NCBI GenBank assembly: GCA_045577965.1
Contig: JAZNJI010000002.1
Span: 4,323-68,322 of the forward strand
DNA length: 64,000 nt
DNA from: Paludibacteraceae bacterium
Lineage (GTDB): Bacteria > Bacteroidota > Bacteroidia > Bacteroidales > Paludibacteraceae
Reading direction: 5' to 3'
Both the position numbers and the translations under genes were made by a program. Below, piece after piece: positions 3,959 through 51,798 of this stretch. Every line of letters starts with the position of its first letter. Position 1 is the first letter of the stretch. The notes beneath the pieces were generated by a model. The model had not been told where the DNA came from and made no database searches. It was given only the letters and a program-made list of their open reading frames with translations.

Positions 3959-3993
3959 ATACACAGGAAATTGATGAGAAAATAAAGGTGCAG

Positions 3994-33000: not shown

Positions 33001-33168
33001 TTGTTGTAGCGCTGTGTAGCGGTTGTGTAGTAGCGCTGCGCGCTGTGTAGCAGTTGTGTAGGGTTGTGTAGCAGTTGTTATTCTAGGATTCCATCCTATA
33101 CCACTCTATACCACCCTATACCATGCTATACCATCCTACACCATCCTATACCATCCTACACCATCCCC
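33001..33168. repeat. inverted word arrays (gtgtag words, then ctatacc/ctacacc words) with hairpin agcgctgcgcgct
   Basis: A C-poor half (33001-33090) is followed by a G-free half (33095-33168), between the kinase and peptidase genes. Confidence 0.85.
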
Positions 33169-34202
33169 CTCTGGGCGACCTCTGCCGCCTCCACATTCGG
33201 CAGACAGTCCAGATGATAGCATTTCACATGCGTGATCACGTGCTTGATGCTCTCGTACATGCAGTCGGCCATCTGTCGGTCCATTTTCAGTCCCGACGCC
33301 GATGACAGCATATACGCATATGCCTCTGGCAGTGAGAGGATTCGCATCTTATTATGCGGTGCCTGACTCAGTTTGATGATTCCTCCTACGCGTGCGCACG
33401 CATTCTTGTAGCAAGGTGTCTTGCCGCTCCATGGCGAACCATAGACGCGCACTTCACCGTCCTCCATCACGCGCAAGATTGGATTGTCGTCGTTGAGCAG
33501 CCATGCGTCATCGAAGGCCGCCAACCACTGCCGCGCATGCGTGGACTTACCCGTCCCGCTATGCCCCAAAAACAAGTACCCTTTCGCCTCGTCCCTCACC
33601 ACCACCGCAGCGTGCATCTCTAGGGTCATCAGTGGGGCGGTGCGGAAAGCAAATAGCAGCATCAGCGCATTGTCGATGCAGAACCTAACATCCTGACAAT
33701 CAGGCATTATGTATAGCACACCTTCCGTAAAATTCTCACTACATTCCATCTCGCAGCAGATAGGCGCGTTGGCCACCATCGCCACGCGGAACAACCAAGT
33801 GTGTGGTATAGGGTTGTTTAGGGTTGTATAGGATTGTGAAGAGTGGTACACTTCGATCCTAGGCATATCTTCCTCTGCATTATCGGTCAGCACATGGGTC
33901 CACTCCTCGCCTATTTGCCTTTCGCCTTTCGCCTCTTCCATTTCCACGCTGAGCGTGAAGATAGGAGTTGAATGCTTCTCGCATTCCATATCTTTGTCGC
34001 GGCAGGGAGTTCTTATCTCACTTTCGTTCGAACGATCTGCTTCGCCGTACGATTGCCGCGAAATGTTGTCTATATTGTCGTTGTTATTTATCTCCACGGC
34101 AAATGGCAGATAATTCGTCATACATGACAACAGCGCACCGTCGCTGCATTCCACAGCGAACAGATGCTCCGCTACGCGGTAGTATGTACGACTAAACGCC
34201 AT
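33156..34202 (-). CDS. HPr-kinase-like P-loop kinase (HprK-related)
   Basis: YLFLGHSGTGKSTHARQW P-loop within an HprK C-terminal-like fold. The start MAFSRTYYRV lies 21 nt after a TACTTTTG box. It contains two in-frame word arrays. Confidence 0.7.
   Translation of the reverse strand: MAFSRTYYRVAEHLFAVECSDGALLSCMTNYLPFAVEINNNDNIDNISRQSYGEADRSNESEIRTPCRDKDMECEKHSTPIFTLSVEMEEAKGERQIGEEWTHVLTDNAEEDMPRIEVYHSSQSYTTLNNPIPHTWLFRVAMVANAPICCEMECSENFTEGVLYIMPDCQDVRFCIDNALMLLFAFRTAPLMTLEMHAAVVVRDEAKGYLFLGHSGTGKSTHARQWLAAFDDAWLLNDDNPILRVMEDGEVRVYGSPWSGKTPCYKNACARVGGIIKLSQAPHNKMRILSLPEAYAYMLSSASGLKMDRQMADCMYESIKHVITHVKCYHLDCLPNVEAAEVAQRGMV
33801..33850 (-). repeat. in-frame word array inside the HprK-like gene
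   Basis: Plus strand gtgtggtatagggttgtttagggttgtataggattgtgaagagtggtaca encodes ..YHSSQSYTTLNNPIPHT.. on the minus strand. Confidence 0.7.
33904..33939 (-). repeat. in-frame word array inside the HprK-like gene
   Basis: Plus strand tcctcgcctatttgcctttcgcctttcgcctcttcc encodes ..EEAKGERQIGEE.. on the minus strand. Confidence 0.65.
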
Positions 34203-34334: not shown

Positions 34335-35828
34335 ATGACTGCGAAAGTACTACATACGCTCATCTCTAATGGCGAACGTGCCAATTTAGAGTGCAAGAGA
34401 GCGCAGCGGAGTATCCCTAATTCGATTTGGGAAACCTATTCTGCTTTCGCCAACACGTATGGTGGCACTATTTTATTGGGCATTGAAGAGAACTTACAAG
34501 AGACAGAACTCGCAAAACGCTTTTCGGTCGGTGGTGTGGAAGATGCGCATAAAATTTGCGCTGACTTTTGGAATATTATTAATAGCAAGGAGAAAGTCAA
34601 CTGCAATATCCTCCAAGACAGCGATGTGCAGATTATAGATGTGGCTGACAAGCAGATTGTTAAAATCTCTGTTCCACAAGCCAGTTACTCAGTCCGTCCT
34701 ATATACATTAATAATAACCTCACAAGAGGTACTTTCAAACGCAACCACGAGGGCGACTACCACTGCTCGGAGCAAGAAATCAAACTCATGTTGCGCGATT
34801 CGAACGAGGGAGGAAACGACCGTGCTATCTTGGAGCATTACACGATGAACGATATAGACATCCCTTCATTGGAGCGTTATCGTATGTTGTTTAATATAAA
34901 CAACCCTGAGCATGTCTGGAAAGATTTGAGTCATCAAGAATTTCTCATGCAGTTGGGTGGATATGCTCAAGACCGCGCGACTGGCATAGAGGGATTGACT
35001 ATTGCAGGATTGCTTATGTTTGGCCAAGGACTGCCTATCCGCGATCGTTTTGATAATCTTCGCATGGATTATATTGATAAAACTAATCTCATAGGAGAGC
35101 AGCGATATAGTGACCGATTGACATACGATGGTACTTGGGAGAATAATTTGCTGAATTTTATTCGTATCGTACTACCTCGTTTGACTCGCGACCTGCCCCG
35201 TCCTTTTGCTATGGAGGGCATGGAGCGAAAAGACGACACGCCACAACACAAAGCGGTACGCGAGGCTGTGACCAATGCAATCATTCATGCTGATTTTACG
35301 CTGAATGGCATTTTGAAAATTGAGAAATATGACGACCGTTTCGTCTTGACTAATCCTGGCTTGTTGAAATTGCCATTGGAGCAAATCTACGCTGGTGGTG
35401 AGTCTAAGGCGCGCAATCAACGCATACAATCTATGTTGCGCATGATTGGTTATGGAGAGAACTTAGGTTCGGGCTTCCCGATGATTCTCAATGCTTGGAA
35501 TGAAAAACATTGGCTCAAACCAGTACTTACCGAGCAACCTGAGTTGCTACAAGTCAAGCTGACATTGTTTGTACAAACTGATGATATCCCTCAAGAACCT
35601 ACAGGTAGAAGTACGGTAGAAACTATGGAGAAAAGTTCGGAGAAAAGTTCGGAGAAAATTATAGATATTATAAAACAATCTCCTAAAATTACAGCTAAAG
35701 AAATATCCATAGTTTTAGGTATTTCTAGTAGAGGTGTAGAAAAACAAATTAAAAATCTTCGAGAGCAAGGCATCCTTCGCCGCATAGGCCCTGACAAGGG
35801 TGGACACTGGGAGGTTCAAGAAATCTAA
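34335..35828 (+). CDS. AlbA_2 (Schlafen-like) / HATPase_c_4 protein with C-terminal winged-helix domain
   Basis: N terminus GERANLECKR...FANTYGGTILLGIEE fits the AlbA_2 signature. The C terminus ITAKEISIVLGISSRGVEKQIKNLREQGILRRIG looks like an HTH. Confidence 0.7.
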   Translation: MTAKVLHTLISNGERANLECKRAQRSIPNSIWETYSAFANTYGGTILLGIEENLQETELAKRFSVGGVEDAHKICADFWNIINSKEKVNCNILQDSDVQIIDVADKQIVKISVPQASYSVRPIYINNNLTRGTFKRNHEGDYHCSEQEIKLMLRDSNEGGNDRAILEHYTMNDIDIPSLERYRMLFNINNPEHVWKDLSHQEFLMQLGGYAQDRATGIEGLTIAGLLMFGQGLPIRDRFDNLRMDYIDKTNLIGEQRYSDRLTYDGTWENNLLNFIRIVLPRLTRDLPRPFAMEGMERKDDTPQHKAVREAVTNAIIHADFTLNGILKIEKYDDRFVLTNPGLLKLPLEQIYAGGESKARNQRIQSMLRMIGYGENLGSGFPMILNAWNEKHWLKPVLTEQPELLQVKLTLFVQTDDIPQEPTGRSTVETMEKSSEKSSEKIIDIIKQSPKITAKEISIVLGISSRGVEKQIKNLREQGILRRIGPDKGGHWEVQEI

Positions 35829-36341: not shown

Positions 36342-39300
36342 ATGAAAAAATCAATCTTATTTTTGCTGGCACTATTTAGTGTCACGATGACAACCCAAGC
36401 CGCCGATTATTATTATCGTGGCGAGAAAAATGGTTGGGGGGAAGGTATTAAACTAACCCTATCTACTGATGGAAGTTACTATTATTATGAGGCAACTGCT
36501 GGAACCCATGCTTTTAAGATCATGGAGAATGCTACAGAATGGAGCGCAAAACAATATAGAGGTGAAAATATCAAAAATGGATATAATGGCACAAATGTTA
36601 ATCTAACTGATTTAGGCGGAAGTGATCACAACTGTCAATCTAAAAGTGCATCAAAACATTATATCCTACTTTATTTGGGAAATAATGATAAAACTGCTGT
36701 AGTTTGTGCATCTACCACTCTCCCTACAGGCCTTAACGAAGTTTGGATTAAGCACCCTTGGGGAGGAGGGTCTTGGTCATACAAGCAAGCTACAGATAAT
36801 GGCGATGGTACTTTCTCTCTCTCTGCAAAGTATGGAGAAAGTGGATGTAACCTGAATGCTTATAATGGAGAAAATGCACAATGGTGGTATGGCCTTGCTG
36901 AAATAGAGGTAGAGGCAGGTCTCAATAAAGGTGATGATGCTGTATTTACAGTTGATGCTGTGACTCGTAAAATTTCTGTTACCAAAAAAGTAAGCAAGAA
37001 TCTTGGCGATATCACAATCACTATGAATTGTACTCAACAACCTAAAATATTCTTCTGGGACGTTGAAGGAAAAACTTGTGCAGCATGGCCTGGTGAGGAT
37101 ATGGTTGCAGCAGGTGCAAATACATACACCTATACCTTCGAAGATGTAGATGTTGATCTTGGCGTAAACTACAAGATTAACTTGAAAGAAGTTAACGAAA
37201 ACGAGTGGAATACTGGTGACTTACATACTACAACTGATGTTACCCATGATGTAAGCGATTTGAATATCCCAAAAATCGTGGTATTAGGTGTTAATGGAGA
37301 TTGGGGAAGTACAAATACACTTACAGAACTCTCTAACGACTATTTGACCGTTTCTAAAACTATTTCGGTAGAAGAAGTTAAAACACATGATATTAAAATG
37401 CATGTTGGCAATAATGAATACCAAGGTGGAAATGTGGTTGATATAACACGAGCAAACCCATCTTCGGAAAAGTTTGATCAGAACTATAGTTATGAAAACG
37501 GAAAATTTACCGCTGACATTGCGGGCGACTATGTATTTACGTACACTTATAAAACGCATACTCTCACCGTTACTTATCCAGAGTTACCAACTCCAGAGTA
37601 TAAAGATATTACTGTAACTGTTTACGCAAAAGAGGTTCCAAATATCTGGTGGTGGAATGGTGGCGACCTATGCCCTTCTACTGAAGACATTGTTAATCCT
37701 TCTACGGGAAATAAATATAAATGGGAAGAAGCTCCTGCGATGGAGAAAGTTGCTGGCGAAGACAATTGGTACACCAAGACTTTTGCTCAAGTAGATATTA
37801 CAAAGGGTGGTATTAAGTTCAAATTGCGATCTGCCGACTACAGTACATCTACTACTAACGAGGTTGTTACAACCGAAGATAAGTGCTATGACGCTCGCGT
37901 TATCGCAACCGTAACAGAAACCACATGTGGCGAACTTCCTGATGGTGAGGTTCCAACTGTGACTTACAACGTTACTGTTCCTACTGGAACTCCAGCTTGC
38001 TATATCGCAGGTGCGATGAATGGTTGGTCACACCAAGCAATGACTAAAGTTGATGAGACACACTACACTATCACTATTGAAGGTGCAGAAAAAACACAAG
38101 AATATAAATACTCTGCAAGCAATAATTGGGATTGTGTTGAGCTAAACGAGGATGGTTCTGAGAAATCTAATCGTACCTGGACTGAAAACGACGTAGTAGC
38201 TAAATGGGCTACTCCTGCCGCTCCAGTTCCTACCACCTACACTGTTGCTGGTGATAGCGAAGCTGCTTTTGGCACAACTTGGGATCCTACTAATACTGCT
38301 AATGACATGGCTCTTGACGGTGAACTCTACAAATGGACCAAGACCAATGTAGCTTTATCTGCTAATACTGAAATCAAATTCCAAGTGGTTAAAAATCACG
38401 ATTGGAATCAAGGTCAATGGCCAGGAAATGGCAATGACTGGGTACTGAATACTATTACTGAAGACGGTCTCTACACTATCACTATCACTTTTAAAGAAGA
38501 TGATAAGACAATCAATGCTACAGCCACCAAGACTGGTGATGTCGTTACAAAAGACTTCTCTAACCAACCAGCTACTCTCTACTTCCACCCAAGCTTCCAC
38601 TGGACATCTGATCATGCACAATTTGCTGCATATTTCTATAACAATGGTCCTGGTGCAGATGCTGAGCCAACATGGGCTAATATGACCGATAGTGATGGTG
38701 ATGGCGTTTACGAAGTAGCCAACGCTAAGCAACACGAGTATGTTATCATCTGTCGTATGAACCCAGACCGTACAGAAAACAAGTGGGATGATGATGTAAT
38801 GTGGAACCAAATCGAACATGGTATCACAATTCCTAATACCGCAGGTGATCTCAATACTTGCTTGGCATTCTGGACAAACTGCCAAGGTGATGTTCCTACT
38901 AGCGAGTGCACATGGGTAGCTCCAACTCCTCTCACTGACAAGAACTGGGGTGATTTCATTGCTGCTTACAATGGCAAAACTATTAATGCTGTAGTAGAGC
39001 GCTCATTCAAATCAAGTCAATTGCACACTCTATGCTTGCCATTTGATTTACAAACAAGTTGGCTTGGCGATGGAGCAAAAGCATACCAAATAACAAGTGT
39101 AGTTAGTAGAACAGCAGAAGAGTTAGAACTCAAAACTACTCAATGCAACTCACTACTTGCTGGCCAACCATACATAATCCAGCCTATCAAGGGCGGAGAA
39201 TACGAGCATATCATCGTTTCTGATGTAACAGTAGAAAATGTAACTGCTCAAGATTATACTGTTTCAGGAGGTGATTGCCAAGTAACAATGCAAGCTGTTG

Positions 39301-39593
39301 CAGCTACAGATGGAACAAAAACCGATGGTACTACCGAATATTATATCGGTGCAGAAGATGGTAAATTATACAAAGGAGTTGTTGATAAACTTGGCCTACG
39401 TGCACTCGTTATAATGACTGACACCGAGGGACAACCACTATCTGTTCGCGCTCGCGTAGTAGTTGGTGAGAACGAAGCTACTGGTATTGAAGATCTCTTC
39501 ACTACCGACGCTCCTGTTAAAGTTATTGAGAACGGTCAACTCATCATCATCCGTGGTGGCGAGAAGTTTAACGCACAAGGCGTGCGCCTTTGA
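36342..39593 (+). CDS. large secreted/cell-surface protein with multiple CBM/Ig-like beta-sandwich repeats
   Basis: 1083 aa. Signal peptide MKKSILFLLALFSVTMTTQA. Repeated aromatic-rich modules (e.g. AGAMNGWSHQAMTKVDETHYTITIEG..YKYSASNNWD) resemble starch/glycan-binding modules. Function not assignable. Confidence 0.7.
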   Translation: MKKSILFLLALFSVTMTTQAADYYYRGEKNGWGEGIKLTLSTDGSYYYYEATAGTHAFKIMENATEWSAKQYRGENIKNGYNGTNVNLTDLGGSDHNCQSKSASKHYILLYLGNNDKTAVVCASTTLPTGLNEVWIKHPWGGGSWSYKQATDNGDGTFSLSAKYGESGCNLNAYNGENAQWWYGLAEIEVEAGLNKGDDAVFTVDAVTRKISVTKKVSKNLGDITITMNCTQQPKIFFWDVEGKTCAAWPGEDMVAAGANTYTYTFEDVDVDLGVNYKINLKEVNENEWNTGDLHTTTDVTHDVSDLNIPKIVVLGVNGDWGSTNTLTELSNDYLTVSKTISVEEVKTHDIKMHVGNNEYQGGNVVDITRANPSSEKFDQNYSYENGKFTADIAGDYVFTYTYKTHTLTVTYPELPTPEYKDITVTVYAKEVPNIWWWNGGDLCPSTEDIVNPSTGNKYKWEEAPAMEKVAGEDNWYTKTFAQVDITKGGIKFKLRSADYSTSTTNEVVTTEDKCYDARVIATVTETTCGELPDGEVPTVTYNVTVPTGTPACYIAGAMNGWSHQAMTKVDETHYTITIEGAEKTQEYKYSASNNWDCVELNEDGSEKSNRTWTENDVVAKWATPAAPVPTTYTVAGDSEAAFGTTWDPTNTANDMALDGELYKWTKTNVALSANTEIKFQVVKNHDWNQGQWPGNGNDWVLNTITEDGLYTITITFKEDDKTINATATKTGDVVTKDFSNQPATLYFHPSFHWTSDHAQFAAYFYNNGPGADAEPTWANMTDSDGDGVYEVANAKQHEYVIICRMNPDRTENKWDDDVMWNQIEHGITIPNTAGDLNTCLAFWTNCQGDVPTSECTWVAPTPLTDKNWGDFIAAYNGKTINAVVERSFKSSQLHTLCLPFDLQTSWLGDGAKAYQITSVVSRTAEELELKTTQCNSLLAGQPYIIQPIKGGEYEHIIVSDVTVENVTAQDYTVSGGDCQVTMQAVAATDGTKTDGTTEYYIGAEDGKLYKGVVDKLGLRALVIMTDTEGQPLSVRARVVVGENEATGIEDLFTTDAPVKVIENGQLIIIRGGEKFNAQGVRL

Positions 39594-39696
39594 TAGTTAT
39601 AAACTATGAGTGATAAGTGATGAGGCAAGAATTGCGGCGCAAGCCGCATTCTCCCCGCCTTTACACTTTACACCTTACACTTTACACTATACACTA
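39594..39696. repeat. word-array / mini-hairpin repeat
   Basis: gtgataagtgatgagg, the hairpin gaattgcggcgcaagccgcattc, then cctttacactttacaccttacactttacactatacac. Confidence 0.8.
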
Positions 39697-39714
39697 AAAC
39701 AAAAAACAGAATTT

Positions 39715-39837
39715 ATGAAAAAAGTATATATCGCGCCTCAAACAGAGGCAATTGAGCTCCTAGGAGAAAACGCCATCATGGTAGGCAGTTCCCTAATTAT
39801 TGGATCTGGCGAAGGTGATGGTGGCGGCATGGGCTAA
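39715..39837 (+). CDS. possible 40-aa peptide with Gly-rich C terminus
   Basis: MKKVYIAPQTEAIELLGENAIMVGSSLIIGSGEGDGGGMG. It lies between a hairpin after the surface-protein gene and the first conserved cassette hairpin. No TAnnTTTG box lies in front of it. Confidence 0.3.
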   Translation: MKKVYIAPQTEAIELLGENAIMVGSSLIIGSGEGDGGGMG

Positions 39838-39882
39838 TCCCGCCCTCCCAAAATTGATTTATTAGCCTTCGGGCTTATCTTA

Positions 39883-39915
39883 CACCACAACCGCTCACTC
39901 TGGGCGGTTGTGGTG
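39883..39915 (+). repeat. conserved cassette hairpin, copy 1
   Basis: caccacaaccgc-tcactctgg-gcggttgtggtg. The 3' flank ttagtccactctttcagaaaaaa is shared with copy 2. Confidence 0.85.
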
Positions 39916-39976
39916 TTGTTAGTCCACTCTTTCAGAAAAAATAAGCCCAATAGTTGCATATTTCAAAAAAAAACAT

Positions 39977-39984
39977 TACCTTTG
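39977..39984 (+). promoter_or_regulatory. -7 box TACCTTTG, cassette 1
   Basis: Preceded by ttgcatatttcaaaaaaaaa, directly after hairpin copy 1. Confidence 0.7.
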
Positions 39985-40034
39985 CAGCGAAAATCTGTAG
40001 CATGATACAAAAATATTAAATAAAACTATGTTTT

Positions 40035-40166
40035 ATGAGTGCAACCGATTACTTAAATAATGCACAAGAGTGGTTAGCTCAGCAATCTCAAAGAACGATT
40101 GATTACCAATGGGAGATTCAGCATCACAACCAAATGCACAAAGCCTACGAAACCTCACTAGTATAA
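40035..40166 (+). CDS. possible 43-aa protein (cassette 1)
   Basis: Manual translation gives MSATDYLNNAQEWLAQQSQRTIDYQWEIQHHNQMHKAYETSLV. It starts 51 nt after a TACCTTTG box and is followed by conserved hairpin copy 2. Confidence 0.25.
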   Translation: MSATDYLNNAQEWLAQQSQRTIDYQWEIQHHNQMHKAYETSLV

Positions 40167-40202
40167 AGCCATCATTCTACTACACACCATTTGATATTCC
40201 AT

Positions 40203-40234
40203 CTCACAACCGTTCTCTCAGGGCGGTTGTGGTG
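40203..40234 (+). repeat. conserved cassette hairpin, copy 2
   Basis: ctcacaaccg-ttctctcagg-gcggttgtggtg, followed by tttagtccactctttcagaaaaaa. Confidence 0.85.
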
Positions 40235-40326
40235 TGTTTAGTCCACTCTTTCAGAAAAAAACATATCGAATAATACTAAATTGCATAAATTTTGTACAAT
40301 AATTTTCAAATTTCAAAAATTTATTG

Positions 40327-40334
40327 TATCTTTG
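40327..40334 (+). promoter_or_regulatory. -7 box TATCTTTG, cassette 2
   Basis: 28 nt before the DUF4160-like ATG. Confidence 0.7.
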
Positions 40335-40361
40335 CAAGCGAAAACAAGAAAATAACATGCC

Positions 40362-40652
40362 ATGCCTAAAGTTCTACAGTATATTACTGCTTATTTTACT
40401 TGGGTTTTTCTCTTCTACGGAACAGATGTCAACGAGAATCGTGCTCATGTACATGTCGGTAAACGTGGCGTAGATAAATTTTGTAAAATTTGGTTAGAAC
40501 CGTTTATTAGTATCGCGGATGCTGGCGATTTAACTCTATCGCAACAAAAGCAAGTTTTACAAATTGTTGAGGAGCAACAAGATAAACTATTGAAGCAATG
40601 GGCATTATTCAAAGAGGGGAAACCTATTAAAATGTTAACCATTAAACGCTAA
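40362..40652 (+). CDS. DUF4160-like protein
   Basis: 96 aa. The N terminus with the NENRAHVHVGKRG His-rich block resembles DUF4160. It is paired with a DUF2442-like gene 7 nt downstream. Confidence 0.55.
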   Translation: MPKVLQYITAYFTWVFLFYGTDVNENRAHVHVGKRGVDKFCKIWLEPFISIADAGDLTLSQQKQVLQIVEEQQDKLLKQWALFKEGKPIKMLTIKR

Positions 40653-40659
40653 TATAACT

Positions 40660-40923
40660 ATGTGTAAAGTAGAAGGATATTGGAATATTACTCCAAAAAT
40701 CAAATGTGTATCTTTCCCTATCCGTGGAAAGATGTCTGTAAAGTTGGAAGATGGTCGTGTGATTATTGTTCCTCTTTCTTCGTTTCCATCCATAAAAAAG
40801 GTTCCTGTCAAGGACCGCTCTAAATGGTATTTAATGGGCGGTGGAGTGACATGGGATAGTTGTCCTGAAGTTATTCATATTGAGCAGATATTAGGTAATT
40901 ATCAGAATTATCAACACGAGTAA
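40660..40923 (+). CDS. DUF2442-like protein
   Basis: 87 aa. VKLEDGRVIIVPLSSFPSIKKVPVKDRSKWYLMGGGVTWDSCPEVIHIEQIL fits the DUF2442 pattern as I recall it. Confidence 0.6.
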   Translation: MCKVEGYWNITPKIKCVSFPIRGKMSVKLEDGRVIIVPLSSFPSIKKVPVKDRSKWYLMGGGVTWDSCPEVIHIEQILGNYQNYQHE

Positions 40924-40985
40924 AAACTGCGTTTCTCCACGCAATCACAAAAACCTGTGCACACCACAGATCTTATAACCCCATC

Positions 40986-41016
40986 CCACAACCGCTCACT
41001 CTGGGCGGTTGTGGTG
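40986..41016 (+). repeat. conserved cassette hairpin, copy 3
   Basis: ccacaaccgc-tcactctgg-gcggttgtggtg, followed by tttttagga. Confidence 0.85.
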
Positions 41017-41090
41017 TTTTTAGGAGTAGCACTTTGTGAAATAATAGGCACTTATTTTATATAACACTTGCATATTTCATTTTTTTTCTG

Positions 41091-41098
41091 TACTTTTG
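41091..41098 (+). promoter_or_regulatory. -7 box TACTTTTG, cassette 3
   Basis: Preceded by cttgcatatttcatttttttt, 30 nt before ATG 41128. Confidence 0.7.
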
Positions 41099-41127
41099 CA
41101 CGGATTTTGTAGATTAATTATTAGACT

Positions 41128-41343
41128 ATGAATACACAAACATTAAACTTTACCATATTCTGTATTGGTAATGTAGCAGAATATCTCAAGATAAATGCCC
41201 GCGATGTATATCATAAAATGCAACAAGCGGACATGATATCTTCTTATATCGTGCCATGCTACGATGTCCTACATTCATTCTCTAAAGAATATATCGTCGA
41301 GGATCTTGTTAACCACATGAAGCAGAAAGGAGTATTACAATGA
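41128..41343 (+). CDS. DUF3791-like small protein
   Basis: 71 aa. It overlaps the downstream DUF3990-like gene by 4 nt, and a paralogous small ORF follows that gene. Confidence 0.5.
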   Translation: MNTQTLNFTIFCIGNVAEYLKINARDVYHKMQQADMISSYIVPCYDVLHSFSKEYIVEDLVNHMKQKGVLQ

Positions 41344-41813
41344 TTACTCTTTATCACACATCCAATCAAGAAGTGCCACAACCTGATGTTCTGCATTCTA
41401 GACAGCACCTCGACTTCGGACGAGGTTTCTACCTAACACCTATCTACGAACAAGCTAAGAAATATGGCGAACGCTTCTTACGCAAAGGCGAAGAAGCATA
41501 CATCAATGTGTATGAACTCGACGAAGATTTAACTGGCTTTACCAAAAAAGTATTTGAGCAATACGACAATCAATGGTTGGATTTTGTTACTGCTTGCAGA
41601 AAAGGACATGACCATCCTCACTATGACATTATAGAAGGAGGTATTGCAGATGACCAAGTGTTCAACACTATAGATTTGTATTTTGCAGGAATATACACTT
41701 ATGAACAAGCCCTTGATCAACTGCGCTACAAGAAACCCAATCATCAGATGTGTATAACAAATGCTAATCTTCTAAAAGAGAAATTACATTTTATTGAATC
41801 GATCAAACTTTAA
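41340..41813 (+). CDS. DUF3990-like protein with PARP/ART-like H-Y-E signature
   Basis: 157 aa. LYHTS (His), GRGFYLT (Tyr) and DIIEGGIADD (Glu) occur in the order and spacing typical of H-Y-E ADP-ribosyltransferases. Confidence 0.55.
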   Translation: MITLYHTSNQEVPQPDVLHSRQHLDFGRGFYLTPIYEQAKKYGERFLRKGEEAYINVYELDEDLTGFTKKVFEQYDNQWLDFVTACRKGHDHPHYDIIEGGIADDQVFNTIDLYFAGIYTYEQALDQLRYKKPNHQMCITNANLLKEKLHFIESIKL

Positions 41814-41818
41814 CTACT

Positions 41819-42028
41819 ATGGAAGCTAATCCGATTATTCTTCAACAGAAATACGCACGTATTGTACAATTGTTCGCAAATAAAGCCGGTTATTCATATG
41901 AGCAAGCGTTGGGAATGTTCTACGACTCCAAAACTTTTGAATTAATCAGCGAAGGAGTAGCTGATATGCATTGCCTAAGCGATGAATACCTCGCTGACGA
42001 ACTCTGCATTGAATATAATATCCACTAG
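41819..42028 (+). CDS. DUF3791-like small protein (second copy)
   Basis: 69 aa. It begins 5 nt after the DUF3990-like gene and is followed by conserved hairpin copy 4. Confidence 0.5.
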   Translation: MEANPIILQQKYARIVQLFANKAGYSYEQALGMFYDSKTFELISEGVADMHCLSDEYLADELCIEYNIH

Positions 42029-42053
42029 ACATCAAAACTCTTTGAACTTATCT

Positions 42054-42083
42054 CCCAACCGCTCACTCAGGGCGGTTGTGGTG
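42054..42083 (+). repeat. conserved cassette hairpin, copy 4
   Basis: cccaaccgc-tcactcagg-gcggttgtggtg, followed by tgtttagga. The left arm is 2 nt shorter. Confidence 0.8.
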
Positions 42084-42100
42084 TGTTTAGGAATATACTG

Positions 42101-42138
42101 CGTGATTGAGTGATGAGTGATAAACTATGAGTGATGAG
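42101..42138. repeat. word array (C-poor)
   Basis: cgtgattgagtgatgagtgataaactatgagtgatgag. Confidence 0.7.
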
Positions 42139-42240
42139 TTTCTACGGACTTTTTGAAAACCTATCAGAAAATGTCCGTAGGAATTCATTACAAAATCATA
42201 AGTCACTCATTATCAAATAAAACCTTTTGTTAAGTAAGCA

Positions 42241-42310
42241 TAGGATATTTAGGAAATTTAGGAATTTCGGGAATTTAATTTCCTAAAATTCCTAAAATTC
42301 CTAATGTTCC
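42241..42310. repeat. palindromic word array
   Basis: taggatatttaggaaatttaggaatttcgggaattt-aa-tttcctaaaattcctaaaattcctaatgttcc. Confidence 0.85.
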
Positions 42311-42864
42311 TTACTTATATTTAGCCGAAAGGATAAGTATGGTATATGAATCATATAGTTATCATATACTAATCTCATAGTAATGTCATAGTATGAACCC
42401 GTCAAGAACCCGTAATTGGTAGTTAATTCAGTAATTCTCCTTGCCTTCGGCAGAAATCTTATTAAATCCTATTGCGCAGATGCCACCCATTTCAAAGCAC
42501 TCCGTGATAAATTGCAACCGCTAGCACTCGCTTTTAGCTCGTCCGCTTAATCTTACAGAATGTGAAGGAGAAACTACTGACAGTGTCAACAAGTATATAA
42601 ATCCCATTCAAAATATTGTTGTACCTTCGAACATCTGCCTGCCTATCGGCATTCCCTCGTAGCCACGTTCGCACAATGCCGGACATACTTCAAACCACTC
42701 GCATTTTTTTGAATGCGGCTTCGCCTTTTATTGAGTTAAAGCTAATGCGCTCTATTGTGAGTAAACTCTCTCCGAGCGCTTAGATTTAACTCAATTGATA
42801 TATAAAATATATCTCCATTCAAAAAAAAATTGCTCGCTTATTTGCGTATGTGCATTTTTTGTTG

Positions 42865-42872
42865 TACCTTTG
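42865..42872 (+). promoter_or_regulatory. -7 box TACCTTTG for pyrH
   Basis: 62 nt before the ATG. Confidence 0.7.
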
Positions 42873-42933
42873 TAGCGGTAATAGTATATTACGCATACCA
42901 CACCCAAAGTTAGAACCATAAAAAAAGACAGAT

Positions 42934-43638
42934 ATGAACAACCGAATACTACTGAAACTTTCAGGCGAAAGCCTCATGGGCGCACAGCAATACGGTATTG
43001 ATCCTCAACGCCTATCTGACTATGCCAACCAAATTCACAACATCGCTAACACTGGCCTACAAGTAGCTATCGTCATCGGTGGAGGCAATATCTTCCGCGG
43101 ACTCAGCGGCGCACAAAAAGGCTTTGACCGCGTCAAAGGCGACCAAATGGGCATGCTAGCCACCGTGATCAACTCGCTCGCACTCTGCTCCGCATTGGAG
43201 GCTGTAGGACAAAAAGCACGCGTGATGACTAGCGTACGCATGGAGCCAATCGGCGAACTATACACAGCTGACAAAGCACTTCGCCTATTGAGCAAAGGAT
43301 ATGTAGTGATCGTGGCTGGTGGCACTGGCAACCCATACTTCACTACCGACACCGCTTCCGTACTCCGCGCCATCGAACTCAAAGCAGATGTGATGATGAA
43401 GGGCACACGCGTGGACGGCATCTACACCGCTGACCCAGAGAAAGACCCTACGGCTACCAAATACACTCAGATCACCTACGACGAGATCCTGGAGATGAAG
43501 CTCAAGGTCATGGACCTCACAGCCATCACCATGTGCCGTGAGAACAACATGCCAATCTATGTTTTTGACATGGACACCGTAGGCAACCTCGAAAAAGTAA
43601 TCAACGGACAACAAATAGGAACACTGGTCAAGCCATAG
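42934..43638 (+). CDS. pyrH: UMP kinase
   Basis: ILLKLSGESL, VIGGGNIFRG and TTDTASVLRAIE are present. Confidence 0.95.
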   Translation: MNNRILLKLSGESLMGAQQYGIDPQRLSDYANQIHNIANTGLQVAIVIGGGNIFRGLSGAQKGFDRVKGDQMGMLATVINSLALCSALEAVGQKARVMTSVRMEPIGELYTADKALRLLSKGYVVIVAGGTGNPYFTTDTASVLRAIELKADVMMKGTRVDGIYTADPEKDPTATKYTQITYDEILEMKLKVMDLTAITMCRENNMPIYVFDMDTVGNLEKVINGQQIGTLVKP

Positions 43639-43642
43639 GCTT

Positions 43643-43716
43643 GGTGTAGAATGGTATAGGATAGTATAGAAGTGGTATAGGATGGTATAGAATAGTATAG
43701 AAGTGGTATAGGATGG
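43643..43716. repeat. C-free word array upstream of four-helix-bundle gene 1
   Basis: ggtgtagaatggtataggatagtatagaagtggtataggatggtatagaatagtatagaagtggtataggatgg. Confidence 0.9.
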
Positions 43717-44117
43717 TTGGATTTGCTACGAAAATAGAAGATTTGAGGATATGGCAAAATGCTCGTACTATCAGTAAAGCTATATACAGCCTCACTTACC
43801 ATGATAACTTTGAGAAAGATTATCGCTTTGTACAACAAATTCGCGCCGCTGCAGGATCTATAATGGATAATATTGCAGAAGGATTCGGAAGAAGTGGAAG
43901 CAAAGAATTTATACAATTTCTTTATATTGCAAGAGGCTCTTGCCAAGAAGTTATTAGCCAACTATACCGTGCATGGGATATTCAATATATTTCTGAGGAA
44001 GAATTCACAGAAACTAAAAAACAGGTCGAGACAACTTCTGTTATGATTTATAACCTAATAGATAATCTCAAGCAATCAGAAAACAAAGGTCCCAAGTACA
44101 GCCCTACACCCCACTAA
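43713..44117 (+). CDS. four-helix-bundle protein (23S rRNA IVS protein / Avd-like family)
   Basis: IEDLRIWQNA...FVQQIRAAAGSIMDNIAEGFGRSGSKEFIQFLYIARGSCQEV is the family signature. A paralog lies at 62361-62762. Confidence 0.8.
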   Translation: MVGFATKIEDLRIWQNARTISKAIYSLTYHDNFEKDYRFVQQIRAAAGSIMDNIAEGFGRSGSKEFIQFLYIARGSCQEVISQLYRAWDIQYISEEEFTETKKQVETTSVMIYNLIDNLKQSENKGPKYSPTPH

Positions 44118-44251
44118 ACCACCCTATACAACCCTACACAGCGCGAAGCGCTACTAAACAACCCTATACAATACTACACAGCGCAAAGCGCTACTAAACA
44201 ACCCTAAACAACCCTACACAACCCTATACAACCCTATACAACCCTATACAA
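44103..44251. repeat. G-free word array with two GCGAAGC-type mini-hairpins downstream of four-helix-bundle gene 1
   Basis: ccctataca/ccctacaca words plus agcgcgaagcgct and agcgcaaagcgct. It runs up to the frr ATG. Confidence 0.9.
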
Positions 44252-44252
44252 T

Positions 44253-44813
44253 ATGATCGAACCTAAAGTTATTTTGAACGACGCAGAGGAATTGATGGAA
44301 TCTGCTGTCATGTACCTCGACGACGCTTTGGCGCGCATCCGCGCAGGCAAAGCCAGTGCACGAATCTTGGATGTAGTCAAGGTGGAATACTACGGACAAA
44401 TGTCGCCACTATCCAATGTGGCTACTATCACCACCCCTGACGCTCGCACCATCCAAATCCAACCTTGGGAGAAGAAAATGCTCTCCGACATCGAACGCGC
44501 ATTGATCAACTCCAGCATTGGTTTGGCTCCAAACAACAATGGCGAGTGCATCCGACTCATGATACCACCATTGACCGAGGAACGCCGTAAAGAACTCGCT
44601 AAGCAATGCAAAGGCGAAGCCGAGAACGCAAAAGTGAGCGTACGCAACGCACGCCGCGATGCCATCGACACCCTCAAAAAGCAAATCAAAGAAGGTTTGC
44701 CAGAGGACGCTGAGAAAGATGCGGAGAACGATGCACAAAAACTTCACGACAAATATGTGAAGCGCATCGACGAAATCTACGCAGCCAAGGAGAAAGAAAT
44801 CATGACTGTGTAA
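44253..44813 (+). CDS. frr: ribosome recycling factor
   Basis: 186 aa. IRAGKASARILD..V.VEYYG, PPLTEERRKEL and RNARRDA are present. Confidence 0.95.
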   Translation: MIEPKVILNDAEELMESAVMYLDDALARIRAGKASARILDVVKVEYYGQMSPLSNVATITTPDARTIQIQPWEKKMLSDIERALINSSIGLAPNNNGECIRLMIPPLTEERRKELAKQCKGEAENAKVSVRNARRDAIDTLKKQIKEGLPEDAEKDAENDAQKLHDKYVKRIDEIYAAKEKEIMTV

Positions 44814-44934
44814 GTTTAGGTTAAAGGTTAGAGGTTAAAGGTTAGAGGTTAAAGGCTAGAAATACCACCCTATACCACCCTACACAACACTACTCTACTG
44901 CTAAACTACTATCGCAAAGCGATCACTCATACTG
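44814..44934. repeat. word arrays (C-free, then G-free) with mini-hairpin
   Basis: gtttaggttaaaggttagaggttaaaggttagaggttaaagg, then ataccaccctataccaccctacacaacactactctactgctaaactact, then atcgcaaagcgat. Confidence 0.9.
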
Positions 44935-46126: not shown

Positions 46127-47119
46127 ATGCGAGGACTAGTTATAAAATCTACTGGTACGAGTTACGGCGTACACTTCGAGGACGGAACAACCGCCGAATG
46201 TCATGTCAAGGGCAATTTCCGCATTCGTGGTATTCGCTCTACTAACCCTATTGCCATAGGCGACCATGTTGAGGTGACGCAACTAGAGGACGGTACCAAT
46301 TGGATCACCGAACTATACGACCGCAAAAACTACATCATCCGCCGCTCCACCAACCTGAGCTATGCCTCACATATCATAGCAGCCAATGTAGATATGGCGG
46401 CATTGATCGTCACACTCCGTCACCCCGAGACATCAACCACCTTTATTGATCGCTTCCTAGCGACCTGCGAAGCTTATCGCGTGCCCGCGTGCATAATATT
46501 TAATAAGGTGGATCTGCTCACCGAAGATGAACTGGAGCAACTATCTACCCTCCGCCAATTATACGAGTCATTGGGCTATCCTACCTACGCTATCTCTGCA
46601 ATAACCCTCACTTCTTCGCCTGATAGCCCAATCGCCCAATCGCCTAATCACCTCATCTCTGCCATCTTTGATGGCAAAGTTACTCTCCTCTCTGGCAATT
46701 CTGGCGTAGGAAAATCTACCCTTTTGAACGCCATTTTAGGCAAAGATGTTGCTCGAACAGGCGCCATCTCCTCTGCCCACCACAAGGGTATGCACACCAC
46801 CACCTTCTCCGAGATGTACCCGCTACACAACACTACACAACACTACACAACACTACACAACACTACCCCACATTCCTGGCTCATCGACACCCCAGGCATC
46901 AAGGGATTTGGTCTGCTAGACATTGAAAAAGAGGAAGTAGGGCACTATTTCCGAGAGATTTTTGAGGTAGCACGCGAATGCCGCTACTCCAACTGCTTGC
47001 ACACGGGCGAGCCTGGATGTGCGGTATATCAAGCAGTGGTAGATGGCAAGATCGCCCTCTCACGCTACGAGAGTTACCTCAGTATCCTAGACGACACCAA
47101 CGAAGGGAAGTATCGTTGA
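46127..47119 (+). CDS. rsgA: ribosome small-subunit-dependent GTPase A
   Basis: OB-fold N terminus, NKVDL, GNSGVGKSTLLNAI, DTPG and Zn knuckle CRYSNCLHTGEPGCAV are present. It contains two in-frame word arrays. Confidence 0.88.
   Translation: MRGLVIKSTGTSYGVHFEDGTTAECHVKGNFRIRGIRSTNPIAIGDHVEVTQLEDGTNWITELYDRKNYIIRRSTNLSYASHIIAANVDMAALIVTLRHPETSTTFIDRFLATCEAYRVPACIIFNKVDLLTEDELEQLSTLRQLYESLGYPTYAISAITLTSSPDSPIAQSPNHLISAIFDGKVTLLSGNSGVGKSTLLNAILGKDVARTGAISSAHHKGMHTTTFSEMYPLHNTTQHYTTLHNTTPHSWLIDTPGIKGFGLLDIEKEEVGHYFREIFEVARECRYSNCLHTGEPGCAVYQAVVDGKIALSRYESYLSILDDTNEGKYR
46614..46652 (+). repeat. in-frame word array inside rsgA
   Basis: cttcgcctgatagcccaatcgcccaatcgcctaatcacc encodes SSPDSPIAQSPNH. 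Confidence 0.7.
46823..46869 (+). repeat. in-frame 10-nt-period word array inside rsgA
   Basis: The unit ctacacaaca is repeated 4 times, followed by ctacccc. It encodes LHNTTQHYTTLHNTTP between the conserved HTTT..E and IDTPG blocks. Confidence 0.85.
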
Positions 47120-48206: not shown

Positions 48207-48255
48207 TAATACAACGCTACACAACACAACACTAACCATTCTAAACAACACTACT
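48207..48255. repeat. G-poor word array forming the recA leader
   Basis: taatacaacgctacacaacacaacactaaccattctaaacaacactact, followed directly by ATG. Confidence 0.8.
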
Positions 48256-49440: not shown

Positions 49441-51031
49441 GAACGAAGTGAACCAAACAACTCTCATATTATCCCCTGAGAAAGCTTACGACGCGGAGCA
49501 ACGCTACCGCGTCGTAAAGCGTTCTATTGATGCCCGCCAGCGTGCGCTCAAGGTCCACCTCACCGTACTTACCGACGAGCATGGTGCACCACTGCCCAAG
49601 GATGCACCTATCCCGCTGTACGAGCCACCACATTTCCAAGATGTACACAACGCCGAGCATAGTGTGGCTATCATCGGCGCAGGCCCGGCGGGCCTATTTG
49701 CTGCGCTCACGCTCATTGAACACGGCATCCGTCCAATCATCTACGAGCGTGGTAAAGAGGTTGCTGAGCGCAAGAAGGACATCGCCACGCTCAACCGTAA
49801 TCAGGGGCTGAATGCCGAGTCCAACTACTGCTTTGGCGAAGGCGGTGCAGGTACTTTCTCCGATGGCAAACTCTTCTCACGTAGCAAGAAACGCGGCAAT
49901 ATGCAACGCGTCATGGAGCTCTTCCACCATTTCGGTGGTGACGACCGCCTATTGTATGAAGCCCATGCCCATATCGGTAGCGACCGCCTGCCCACCATCA
50001 TCCGCCGCATGCGCGAGTGCATCCTCGAACATGGTGGCGAGATCCACTTCTCTACCTGCGTAGATGAACAACTCTTCCGTAGCCTTATCGCCAATAGCCA
50101 ATATCCAATAGGCGGAACGCCGTCCAATAGCCCGTTAGGGCGTCCTGCCCTCTTGGGCGTCATCCTCGCCATTGGTCACTCCGCACATGATACCTACCAC
50201 ATGCTGCATGCCAACGGTGTTGCCCTGGCAACAAAAGGTTTCGCTATGGGCGTGCGCGCAGAGCACCCACAGGCGCTGATCAATAAACTGATGTACCACG
50301 ATCCATCGCCCGAACTCATCCGTTTGGTAGGCAATGCTTCGTATTCGTTGGTGACGCAGGTGCAAGGTCGTGGTGTTTATTCCTTCTGTATGTGCCCAGG
50401 CGGACATATCGTCCCAGCAGGCAGTGCGCTGAATAGTTGTGTAGTTAATGGTATGTCTGCCAGCCACCGCAACTCTCCATACGCCAATTCGGGTATGGTC
50501 GTAGAAATTCGTCCCGAAGACTTGCTCGTCAATAACAATACTACACCACACTACACAATTCTACACCATACTACCCCTGCTCTTGCAGGCCTAACATTCC
50601 AGCAAGAGCTCGAACGCCTTGCCTTTGAATACGGTGGCGAACCATCCTTAGCTCCTGCTCAACGCTTACGCGATTTCGTGGAGGGCAAGGCAAGTAAGAC
50701 GCTACCTGCATGTAGCTATCTGCCAGGCACGGTGTCCAGCCGCCTTGACCAATGGTTACCCGAACATATCGGCAAACGCTTGCAACAGGGATTCCGCGAT
50801 TTCGACCGCAAATATCGAGGTTTCTTGACCAACGAAGCCGTTATCCTTGGCGTAGAGAGCCGCAGTAGTAGCGCTGTGCGTATTCCTCGCGATCCCGAGA
50901 CACTGCAATCTATATCCACGCCTCACCTTTATCCTTGTGGTGAAGGAGCAGGCTACGCAGGCGGCATCACCTCCTCCGCACTCGACGGCATCAATGTCGC
51001 CCTCAAAATCGCCGAACGCATTACCCACTAA
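49439..51031 (+). CDS. FAD-dependent oxidoreductase (COG2509-like)
   Basis: VAIIGAGPAGLFAAL dinucleotide fold and CFGEGGAGTFSDGKL are present. It contains two in-frame word arrays. The track start at 49415 lies in an array. Confidence 0.75.
   Translation: MNEVNQTTLILSPEKAYDAEQRYRVVKRSIDARQRALKVHLTVLTDEHGAPLPKDAPIPLYEPPHFQDVHNAEHSVAIIGAGPAGLFAALTLIEHGIRPIIYERGKEVAERKKDIATLNRNQGLNAESNYCFGEGGAGTFSDGKLFSRSKKRGNMQRVMELFHHFGGDDRLLYEAHAHIGSDRLPTIIRRMRECILEHGGEIHFSTCVDEQLFRSLIANSQYPIGGTPSNSPLGRPALLGVILAIGHSAHDTYHMLHANGVALATKGFAMGVRAEHPQALINKLMYHDPSPELIRLVGNASYSLVTQVQGRGVYSFCMCPGGHIVPAGSALNSCVVNGMSASHRNSPYANSGMVVEIRPEDLLVNNNTTPHYTILHHTTPALAGLTFQQELERLAFEYGGEPSLAPAQRLRDFVEGKASKTLPACSYLPGTVSSRLDQWLPEHIGKRLQQGFRDFDRKYRGFLTNEAVILGVESRSSSAVRIPRDPETLQSISTPHLYPCGEGAGYAGGITSSALDGINVALKIAERITH
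50084..50145 (+). repeat. in-frame word-array/mini-hairpin insertion inside the FAD oxidoreductase gene
   Basis: cttatcgccaatagccaatatccaataggcggaacgccgtccaatagcccgttagggcgtcc uses the same words as the intergenic array at 32212-32300. Confidence 0.8.
50530..50577 (+). repeat. in-frame G-free word array inside the FAD oxidoreductase gene
   Basis: caataacaatactacaccacactacacaattctacaccatactacccc encodes NNNTTPHYTILHHTTP. Confidence 0.8.
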
Positions 51032-51112
51032 CCACCCTACGCAACACAACACTACACTATACTACCCTACACTACACTATACTACACCACACTACACAAT
51101 ACTACACAACCC
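51030..51112. repeat. G-free word array forming the tcdA leader
   Basis: accaccctacgcaacacaacactacactatactaccctacactacactatactacaccacactacacaatactacacaaccc. Confidence 0.9.
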
Positions 51113-51114
51113 TT

Positions 51115-51798
51115 ATGTTTACACGAACGATACAACTCATAGGCGAAGACGGCTTTCGCGCGTTGCAGAATGCTCGCGTGATACTCTTCGGCGTGGGCGG
51201 CGTGGGCGGTTGGTGCGCAGAGACACTCCTGCGCACAGGCATCGGACACCTGACCCTGGTGGATTTCGACAAAGTGGACACTACTAACCTCAACCGTCAA
51301 GTGGTAGCTACCCACAATAATATCGGACAAAGCAAAGTCCTCGAGATGCAAAAGCGCCTTCTCAATATCGCTCCTGAAGCAGATATTCAAGCCATTGACC
51401 GACAATACAATGCCGATACAGCAGACTCCTTCGACCTCACGCAATACGACATCGTGATTGATGCCATCGACATGGTGGAGTGCAAAGCACTACTGCTCTA
51501 CCGTGCGACACAAGCGGGTTGCAGAGTGTATTCTAGCATGGGTGCAGGTCGCAAAACCGATCCACAAAAGATTCGCACCGCAGAGTTTTGGAAGGTACAA
51601 GGCTGCCCTCTCGCGCGTGCCTTACGTACCAAAATGAAAAAGGCAGGACTAATGCCTGCCTCTAAGATTCAATGTGCCTATTCCGAAGAGATCAGTGGAG
51701 ACCAAGGTACCCTCGCCCCTGTCGTGGGCGTATTTGGCATGACCCTCGCCAGCTTGGTAATCAATGACCTAAATAATCATTCGAACTGCTCCGCGTAG
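51115..51798 (+). CDS. tcdA: tRNA threonylcarbamoyladenosine dehydratase (ThiF/E1-like)
   Basis: ARVILFGVGGVGGWCAETLLRTGIGHLTLVDFDKVDTTNLNRQ is present. Confidence 0.8.
   Translation: MFTRTIQLIGEDGFRALQNARVILFGVGGVGGWCAETLLRTGIGHLTLVDFDKVDTTNLNRQVVATHNNIGQSKVLEMQKRLLNIAPEADIQAIDRQYNADTADSFDLTQYDIVIDAIDMVECKALLLYRATQAGCRVYSSMGAGRKTDPQKIRTAEFWKVQGCPLARALRTKMKKAGLMPASKIQCAYSEEISGDQGTLAPVVGVFGMTLASLVINDLNNHSNCSA

Follow-up and report, generated by a model that had tools for sequence, protein, structure and literature searches.

Bacteria are known to shuffle small accessory genes mainly through integrons, rAID-1 arrays, and pdif modules, each of which is defined by a recombinase together with the site it acts on. 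A complete integron requires the integrase gene intI, and a cluster of attC sites without an integrase is referred to as CALIN. The attC site follows the scheme R''(RYYYAAC)-L''...L'-R'(GTTRRRY), carries an unpaired central spacer and extrahelical bases, and measures 57–141 nt. The dif site comprises 28 bp, i.e., an 11-bp XerC arm, a 6-bp centre, and an 11-bp XerD arm. According to IntegronFinder 2.0, complete integrons in Bacteroidetes have been reported only for Salinibacter ruber (PMC9024848). In Bacteroidales, rAID-1 comprises co-directional accessory genes of low GC content with repetitive intergenic sequence, and its authors call it integron-like (bioRxiv 10.1101/471110). Here, we analyzed a 64,000-nt stretch of a Paludibacteraceae bacterium (assembly GCA_045577965.1, contig JAZNJI010000002.1, positions 4,323 to 68,322; hereafter the window), in which an array of three small gene modules follows a 40-codon peptide gene that we call P. 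P and each module end in the same hairpin, which is very probably both the intrinsic terminator of these units and the DNA-level joint of the cassette array. The locus, from ruminant-gut Paludibacteraceae, thus displays the cassette behaviour of the known systems, but its joint is a terminator hairpin and no recombinase was seen nearby, and it is best read as a small chromosomal cassette islet anchored at the terminator of P. The searchable literature yielded no account of an array of this kind.

The array works like integrons or CALIN, rAID-1, or Xer-serviced pdif modules, yet belongs to none of them. The comparison with integron attC and Xer pdif arrays drawn in the initial annotation holds for the array-like behaviour; the attC and dif/pdif tests failed, which leaves it as an analogy only. 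CALIN and sedentary chromosomal integrons share with the locus co-oriented cassettes with one 3' hairpin site each, and the gain, loss, and reordering of cassettes among strains. Near-identical sites within one array, toxin–antitoxin- or defence-type content with its own promoters, and the lack of an adjacent integrase (as in CALIN) complete the resemblance. Unlike in integrons, the site is a perfect hairpin of 31–35 nt that would double as a terminator, the first site is the same hairpin instead of attI, the cassettes hold two to three genes and a promoter each, and the host belongs to a Bacteroidales lineage. The attC architecture did not apply, as the 12–16 bp stem of the 31–35-nt hairpin is fully paired and without bulges, and AAC/GTT occur only inside the stem; no attC-like outer R boxes pair in the hairpin flanks. 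We searched for a recombinase by a Pfam scan of about 55 window open reading frames (ORFs) that we took for genes, among them all non-overlapping ORFs of ≥120 aa. None of these matched a recombinase or transposase family, as the initial annotation had stated for the window, and the gene lists (up to 10 kb on each side) of roughly 45 related P-type loci contained no integrase, recombinase, or transposase families. This applies likewise to the integron integrase (intI; Phage_integrase), which was absent from the scanned window ORFs and from these gene lists.

rAID-1 occurs in the same order and resembles the array in its layout by at least two co-directional genes, a GC content of ≤41% (here 39–40%), and repetitive intergenic sequence. 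Unlike rAID-1 as defined in bioRxiv 10.1101/471110, the locus has no recombinase that we could find, and instead of orphan immunity genes the cargo consists of DUF4160/DUF2442, PDC-M13, Kinase-PolyVal, ParE-like, NYN/HEC-09, and zeta toxin genes. Xer modules, i.e., the pdif modules of Acinetobacter plasmids and the chromosomal IMEX at dif, are likewise discrete, often of toxin–antitoxin content, bounded by short palindromic sites, and without a recombinase in or beside them, the enzyme being supplied in trans. In contrast to pdif sites, which lie on plasmids in opposite or alternating orientation, all four hairpins are chromosomal and on the + strand. A dif-like site was rejected, since the palindrome is centred on a base, its spacer is odd (3, 5, 7, or 9), and its arms are unlike dif arms. 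A chromosomal dif would lie at the replication terminus with its GC-skew switch; we discarded such a region, as GC skew is mostly negative across the window and shows no lasting sign change at 39–42 kb. Core-gene-flanked defence hotspots and the minimal mobile elements of Neisseria share the fixed slot, the strain-variable cassettes, and the lack of mobility genes, and homologous recombination following DNA transfer is taken to account for their exchange. There, crossovers lie in the core-gene flanks, whereas here a 31-nt palindrome bounds each cassette, crossovers fall within it, and single cassettes move and reorder. The hairpin resembles intrinsic (rho-independent) terminators by its GC-rich stem-loop at the 3' end of a unit, its G-U pairs on the sense strand, and its compensatory changes; unlike in ordinary ones, its sequence as well as its structure is conserved across unrelated genes and species, and it marks recombination junctions. 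Two further candidates were excluded. REP/BIME elements with RAYT are dispersed outside genes in many copies per genome and include a Y1 transposase gene flanked by REPs; here, all four copies in 64 kb belong to the array, four metagenome-assembled genomes (MAGs) have a single locus each, and Y1_Tnp gave no match. IS200/IS605-type elements have subterminal hairpins at both ends and a TnpA, which does not fit n modules with n + 1 hairpins, an empty site that keeps one hairpin (L018), and no TnpA.

Hairpins and modules in the window

The array spans positions 39882–42084 and contains four same-strand copies of CACAACCGC-N9-GCGGTTGTGGTGT. A pattern scan of the window with CACAACCGC-N9-GCGGTTGTG (≤2 mismatches) matched at 39886, 40205, 40987, and 42054, all on the + strand, and no copy was found outside the array across the 64 kb. 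In 100 shuffled windows the pattern gave 0 matches, i.e., none is expected by chance, which bears out the four copies confined to the array that had been noted initially. When folded as a single strand, each copy forms a stem of 12–16 bp with a CTC triloop and T-G wobbles (−20 to −35 kcal/mol). Most of the 9-nt loop or spacer between inverted arms, as first proposed, is thus paired. Hairpin 1 (39882–39916) is the putative terminator of P and the left array boundary; it has a perfect stem of 13 bp, or 16 bp when extended (−35 kcal/mol, z = −7.8), and its site is identical at 31 of 31 positions in most related loci. Hairpin 2 (40205–40235) differs by three substitutions, including one compensatory pair (A-T to T-A), and shares with hairpin 1 the additional 3' flank ttagtccactctttcagaaaaaa, as had been noticed before. 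Hairpin 3 (40986–41017) was recognized by motif match and fold, and hairpin 4 (42054–42084) forms the right array boundary. All four lie on the + strand and are rich in A on the 5' side and in T on the 3' side, and a simple terminator scan detects three of the four; no other hairpin in the window has their sequence. Regarding known RNA families, Rfam gave no match at gathering thresholds in the whole window, and at E ≤ 1 for positions 39500–43000 only chance miRNA-like matches on a long AT-rich palindrome.

Between the four hairpins lie three head-to-tail modules on the + strand. Each has its own promoter-like element TTGCAT...TAnnTTTG, in agreement with the initial annotation; the same element is the general promoter form of this genome (family D6, nine copies across the window). 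The gene content originally assigned to the modules was confirmed by Pfam and ORF coordinates. Module 1 (39917–40204) is a remnant and comprises a leader, a promoter (39954–39984), and a 43-aa ORF (40035–40166). A full-length module 1 in a related locus (L002) consists of a 42-aa ORF and a Kinase-PolyVal protein, and sequence comparison identifies the 43-aa ORF as the remainder of such a two-gene module (small ORF and kinase) after an internal deletion. This deletion form occurs in 10 other loci with 97–99% identity and in differing contexts. Module 2 (40236–40985) carries promoter TATCTTTG (40327–40334) and genes for DUF4160 (40362–40652; Pfam score 45 bits) and DUF2442 (40660–40923; 40 bits), and is 98–100% identical in L037–L041. 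DhiT/DhiA is a validated type II toxin–antitoxin system (PMC8198452). The DUF4160 protein matches the NCBIfam model of the DhiT toxin weakly (24.7 bits against a cut-off of 100), so that the pair may be DhiT/DhiA-like and DUF4160 toxin-like. Module 3 (41018–42053) contains a promoter (41068–41098) and three genes encoding DUF3791 (41128–41343), DUF3990 (41340–41813; 159 bits), and a second, DUF3791-like protein with a weak Pfam match (41819–42028). The triad matches the PADLOC candidate defence system PDC-M13 A/B/C in the correct gene order (95, 180, and 109 bits), and DUF3990 is a member of the Pfam ADP-ribosyltransferase clan (PMC7955679). Nucleotide identity of module 3 is 96–98% across contexts, and an identical DUF3990 protein appears in 189 assembly-collection blocks. 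By similarity, the cargo would therefore comprise toxin–antitoxin or candidate anti-phage modules. The seven genes of the array are co-directional, and its GC content is about 39–40%, compared to 45–50% nearby.

Cassette arrangements and junctions in related loci

To place the array in context, we combined a scan of one genome per species, a metagenome scan, and exact-protein look-ups, which yielded about 40 loci with 89 hairpins; most of these comparison loci are metagenome contigs or MAGs. In the species-representative scan, the motif with the same loop was found only in four Paludibacteraceae MAGs, with one locus each. The other 12 genome matches and both viral matches were chance hits inside coding sequence with unrelated loops. 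Confined to the array within 64 kb and to one locus in each of the four MAGs, the motif is neither a common genome-wide terminator nor a genome-wide repetitive extragenic palindromic (REP) or uptake sequence.

All of the about 40 loci start with a surface-type gene, followed by a P-type gene with its hairpin and then by the cassettes. Module content is not invariant: presence, absence, order, and replacement of cassettes vary, giving at least 15 arrangements among these related Paludibacteraceae loci. With a slash for a hairpin, M1–M5 for the cassette types, M1d for the deletion remnant of M1, and E1 and E2 for alternative right-hand flanks, the window reads P/M1d/M2/M3/E1. In front of the same flank, we found an empty site (P/E1; L018), single cassettes (P/M2/E1 in L037 and L038; P/M3/E1 in L011, L025, and L034; P/M1d/E1 in L054 and L058), and a pair (P/M1d/M3/E1 in L052, L053, and L059). 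The order is reversed in L023 (P/M3/M1). Arrangements with the other flank comprise P/M1/E2, P/M1d/E2, P/M3/E2, and P/M4/E2, the last with the ParE-like cassette M4 (L002, L014, L029, L033, and L022). Further variants are P/M5/M1d in L051 and L056, in which M5 encodes NYN/HEC-09 plus 69 aa, P/M3 beside uvrB or ATPase_2 (L026 and L027), and P followed across the hairpin by a zeta toxin plus 64 aa (L061). The same cassettes hence adjoin differing downstream genes, i.e., pyrH, uvrB, ATPase_2, or AAA_14 and a DEAD-box helicase. Throughout, n modules go along with n + 1 hairpins, and the empty site retains one.

Compared to the window, the modules of related loci are 96–100% identical at the nucleotide level. 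Their surroundings are less so, with 65–89% for the 3' end of the surface gene, 69–91% for P, 85–94% for pyrH, and 83–97% for frr. The near-identity of modules between diverged flanks indicates a recent transfer of the modules among diverged genomes. At either end of each module, the switch in similarity falls inside the hairpin of about 31 nt. Mapping of crossovers by polymorphisms (loop position 16 T/A, the NN after GGTGT, and loop types) revealed no strict association with either the left or the right unit, and the crossover point within the hairpin can therefore not be fixed. Outside the hairpin, there are three mosaic junctions, each at a promoter box: L022 and L051 have theirs at the −7 box TACCTTTGCAGCG, and L028 at the −33 box TTTGCATAATTCA. 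In these mosaic leaders (L028, 8735–9045; L022; L051, 7245–7675), unrelated gene sets share a common leader and promoter up to the box, so promoter boxes also act as recombination junctions. Regarding possible vectors, 50,697 phage records contained no match to the cassettes, and 72,556 plasmids just one weak match (66%).

The hairpins themselves form a family. The stem CAACCGC/GCGGTTG is present in 72 hairpins, with the loops TCACTCAGG (46 hairpins), TCACTCTGG (7), TCTCTCAGG (6), and several C-rich types; the window-type loop accounts for 59 of the 72 (TCACTCWGG in 53, TCTCTCAGG in 6). The loop conservation reported for the window copies thus holds there, but not in relatives, in which the loop varies and the stem core AACCGC/GCGGTT is kept. 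Sense orientation is maintained in 59 of 60 hairpins with the window-type loop. RNAalifold predicted 11 pairs for 20 distinct sequences, with an invariant AACCGC/GCGGTT core, G-U pairs on the sense strand only, and compensatory changes from CG to AU at three outer pairs (in 3–6 of the 20 sequences). Hairpins of one array resemble one another. In L042, for instance, CAAAACCGC-TCCTCTGGG stands on both sides of an 86%-identical M3, and L061 and L068 have an unrelated P terminator, AAAAATCGTGCC-N12-GGCACGATTTTT (ATCGTGCC-N12-GGCACGAT), which in L061 flanks the zeta cassette on both sides. Mixed loop types occur within the arrays of L032, L051, and the window. Two hairpins have a loop that is flipped relative to the flanks (L024 and L056), and between L026 and L032 the hairpin interior is replaced within flanks that are locally 100% identical. 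No cassette was found to occur with two hairpin types unrelated to each other, a case that would tell duplication from carriage; for zeta cassettes, the ATCGTGCC type was the only one. The hairpin is not an intrinsic part of DUF3990 or zeta-toxin modules, as 70–78%-identical homologues in other loci (L045–L050 and L069–L074) are not flanked by hairpins of this kind. Its duplication hence belongs to the slot and not to the genes.

Possible mechanisms of cassette exchange

The terminator function is suggested by the position of the hairpin at the 3' end of every unit, its stability, the wobble pairs on the sense strand, and covariation. That the hairpin serves as a terminator as well as a recombination joint had been put forward in the initial annotation and is supported by variable content and junctions inside the hairpin. 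As RNA, it would terminate each unit and insulate the neighbouring units. As DNA, it is the sole sequence common to otherwise unrelated modules and the point at which they are joined, lost, swapped, or acquired from other species. For the exchange itself, we consider the chances about even that it depends on homology and is carried out by host functions, i.e., RecA-type recombination and/or replication template switching, which would act at the palindrome and require no dedicated integrase at the locus. Recombination between two direct hairpins would delete a module or release it as a putative circle, by enzymes that are likewise postulated. The reverse reaction, or a double crossover in both hairpins flanking the incoming DNA, would insert a module beside the resident hairpin, and repeated exchange would keep the hairpins of one array alike. 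We favour this homology-driven mechanism because roughly 45 related loci lack a linked recombinase, because junctions also occur at other short shared sequences (promoter boxes), as such exchange predicts, and because unrelated hairpin sequences behave alike. Furthermore, flipped loops and exchanged interiors are changes that palindromes typically undergo. Should recombination by the host at shared terminators suffice, regulatory punctuation alone can make genes modular and mobile, which would explain how defence hotspots are filled without mobile-element genes. Several observations weigh against host recombination at a terminator. The tail of the hairpin, GGTGTKKTTTAG, is an imperfect U-tract interrupted by G, which counts against the terminator part. 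A homology of 31 to about 60 nt is near the lower limit of RecA, yet the flux between species looks high, and the spread of the non-functional M1d remnant to many contexts suggests an efficient mechanism. The 6-bp core AACCGC/GCGGTT is unvaried in 85 hairpins, and the whole 31-nt site is identical at module-free sites of diverged genomes (L017 and L021; two changes in L018). Such constraint exceeds the needs of a terminator and would suit protein recognition. As in site-specific systems, all copies are direct, with one site per cassette. Left and right flanks joined across a shared cassette could, moreover, occasionally be chimeric in metagenome contigs.

We tentatively consider an enzyme acting in trans that reads the structure of the hairpin and not its sequence, and stacks promoter-bearing defence or toxin–antitoxin cassettes behind the P terminator. 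Candidates would be a tyrosine recombinase encoded elsewhere, or an integrase copying the palindrome in the way CRISPR adaptation copies a repeat; the outcome would be a new exchange system of Bacteroidota, an "integron without attC or intI". The main rival to host recombination, and less probable, is an unlinked site-specific recombinase that recognizes this particular hairpin as its att site and services the array in trans, the hairpin being a terminator only incidentally. It could act on the folded strand, like the integron integrase on attC, or be an Xer-type or other tyrosine recombinase acting on a 10-7-10 duplex core, to which the geometry of arms and spacer would be suited. Precise junctions, one direct site per cassette, and the single-site empty state agree with such an enzyme, as do cassettes that are near-identical across species, with even the dead remnant spread, and the invariant stem core with the window-type loop in most hairpins. 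The site retained at 31 of 31 positions where modules are missing fits as well, and rAID-1 provides a precedent in the same order (bioRxiv 10.1101/471110). However, neither the scanned ORFs of the 64 kb nor the genes listed up to about 10 kb away in the roughly 45 related loci included a recombinase, and the loop, as the would-be overlap region, varies, is mixed within arrays, and flips in L024 and L056. In a close relative, the unrelated ATCGTGCC-type hairpin behaves alike, so that an enzyme reading the sequence would have to combine several specificities. Junctions at promoter boxes and the lack of extrahelical bases and of an R/L box layout are likewise at odds with it. If an unlinked hairpin-specific enzyme did exist, it would constitute a new recombination system. 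With a site of just 31 nt and with empty and filled alleles occurring in nature, either mechanism is testable.

We regard the remaining explanations as improbable to different degrees. In a duplicative integration, staggered cuts made by an integrase on either side of the palindrome and gap repair would duplicate the hairpin, as Cas1-Cas2 does with the CRISPR repeat or a casposase with its target. Cassettes flanked by the hairpin variant of their own lineage, whatever its sequence, are in line with this, and the conserved leader (the 3' untranslated region (UTR) of P), repeat, insert, and repeat resemble a CRISPR array. Nevertheless, the same cassette always has the same ends, often with a hairpin type unlike the resident one (b on the left and a on the right in L032; c and b in L027), the cassettes lack terminal inverted repeats, and no Cas1, casposase, or transposase genes were seen, which makes this process unlikely. 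Still less likely is that the hairpins are ordinary terminators and the cassettes immobile, with all variation due to vertical descent and differential deletion from one ancestral array. Many arrangements with the pyrH flank could indeed be derived from M1-M2-M3 by direct-repeat deletions; this does not fit cassettes of 96–100% identity where flanks have 65–94%, the reversed order in L023, the same cassettes beside pyrH and the three other downstream contexts, or the extra cassettes of relatives that are absent from the window, and the identity table points toward a disagreement between cassette and core-gene trees. Least credible of all is an artefact of metagenome assembly across repeats. 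Most loci are metagenome contigs or MAGs, and shared cassettes of about 1 kb could join the flanks of different strains, but the hairpin (31–60 nt) is shorter than the final k-mer of 141 of MEGAHIT-style k141 contigs, independent samples and different assemblers gave the same arrangements again (L011/L025/L034; L052/L053/L059; L037/L038), and the window itself holds three modules.

Anchor, flanks, and surroundings of the array

The upstream anchor of the array is a surface-type protein gene (36342–39593, + strand) encoding 1083 aa with a weak CBM26 match; in relatives, a CBM26/Flg_new_2 protein of 950–1760 aa always precedes the P-type peptide gene. The initial annotation placed the block between this surface-protein gene and the non-coding stretch before pyrH, which is accurate except that the 40-codon gene P (39715–39837, + strand) intervenes and had been overlooked. 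The 40-aa peptide is conserved at its N-terminus (MKKVYIAPQTEAIELLG.N.IM.GS), and hypervariable and Gly-rich at its C-terminus. Its homologues fall into more than 100 peptide clusters of the protein collection; no family model matched P, and the peptide of the window itself has no record in the assembly collection. Between the window and L028, differences in the N-terminal part are mostly synonymous. L028 carries P genes as a tandem pair (4489–4614 and 7182–7307). The 3' UTR of P (39850–39881, + strand) is conserved and contains a small hairpin (AGCC-TTCG-GGCT; 39864–39875). In an alignment of 24 loci, about 35 nt of 3' UTR together with the array hairpin are conserved beside the hypervariable coding sequence of P, and the small hairpin keeps its stem and varies in its loop. 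A 19-nt direct repeat, ATAAACTATGAGTGAT(A/G)AG, brackets P and the whole array (39598–39617 and 42120–42138), and was not seen in the relatives examined.

Downstream, the non-coding stretch E1 (42085–42933, + strand) separates the array from pyrH and matches no credible Rfam family. It includes an element of about 280 nt (42139–42416) with an 8-bp hairpin (CTACGGAC...GTCCGTAG) and a 90-nt AT-rich palindrome (42232–42320). This element recurs with 92% identity before a tRNA-synt_2 (aminoacyl-tRNA synthetase) gene in L061 and L062, and upstream of a cassette in L057. A segment of about 200 nt (approximately 42380–42578) is inverted in L025, L052, L053, L054, and L060, and has the orientation of the window in L059 and L038. 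Its boundary inverted repeats measure just about 5–9 nt, and the segment may represent an invertible switch or a recurrent inversion. In this lineage, pyrH (42934–43638, + strand) is the core gene downstream and carries an AA_kinase annotation in syntenic loci; the neighbours of the array are core genes, i.e., tpiA, pyrH, frr, rsgA, recA, a topoisomerase gene, serS, and tkt. Two 23S_rRNA_IVP (four-helix-bundle) genes were found at 43713–44117 and 62361–62762. Arrays of 10-nt repeats lie on either side of the copy between pyrH and frr, and a gene at that position is absent from L011 and L025 and present in L058 and L060.

Repeat arrays with a 10-nt period occur in many intergenic regions on either strand, with units such as ACAACCCTAT, CTACACAACA, and GGTATAGGAT. 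They are located at 28389–28470, 33080–33174, 39660–39700, 43635–43700, 44092–44263, 44817–44898, and 46801–46892, and furthermore at 48211–48254, 50519–50580, 51020–51121, 57112–57146, 60225–60291, and 62747–62830. At the beginning of the window (426–5343), a cluster of genes encodes a DpnII restriction endonuclease, a D12 methyltransferase, and Fic and DUF3987 proteins, and is followed by a palindrome with perfect 26-nt arms (3990–4053); cluster and palindrome may be a mobile-element remnant. Finally, variability extends to the region 5' of the surface-protein gene, where the window carries an AlbA_2/HATPase_c_4 gene (34335–35828) and relatives instead carry ORF6N, AAA_14/DUF4143, AbiEii, DUF1016, Bro-N, or RhuM genes (L011, 464–1412; L027, L033, L051, L056, L061, and L064).

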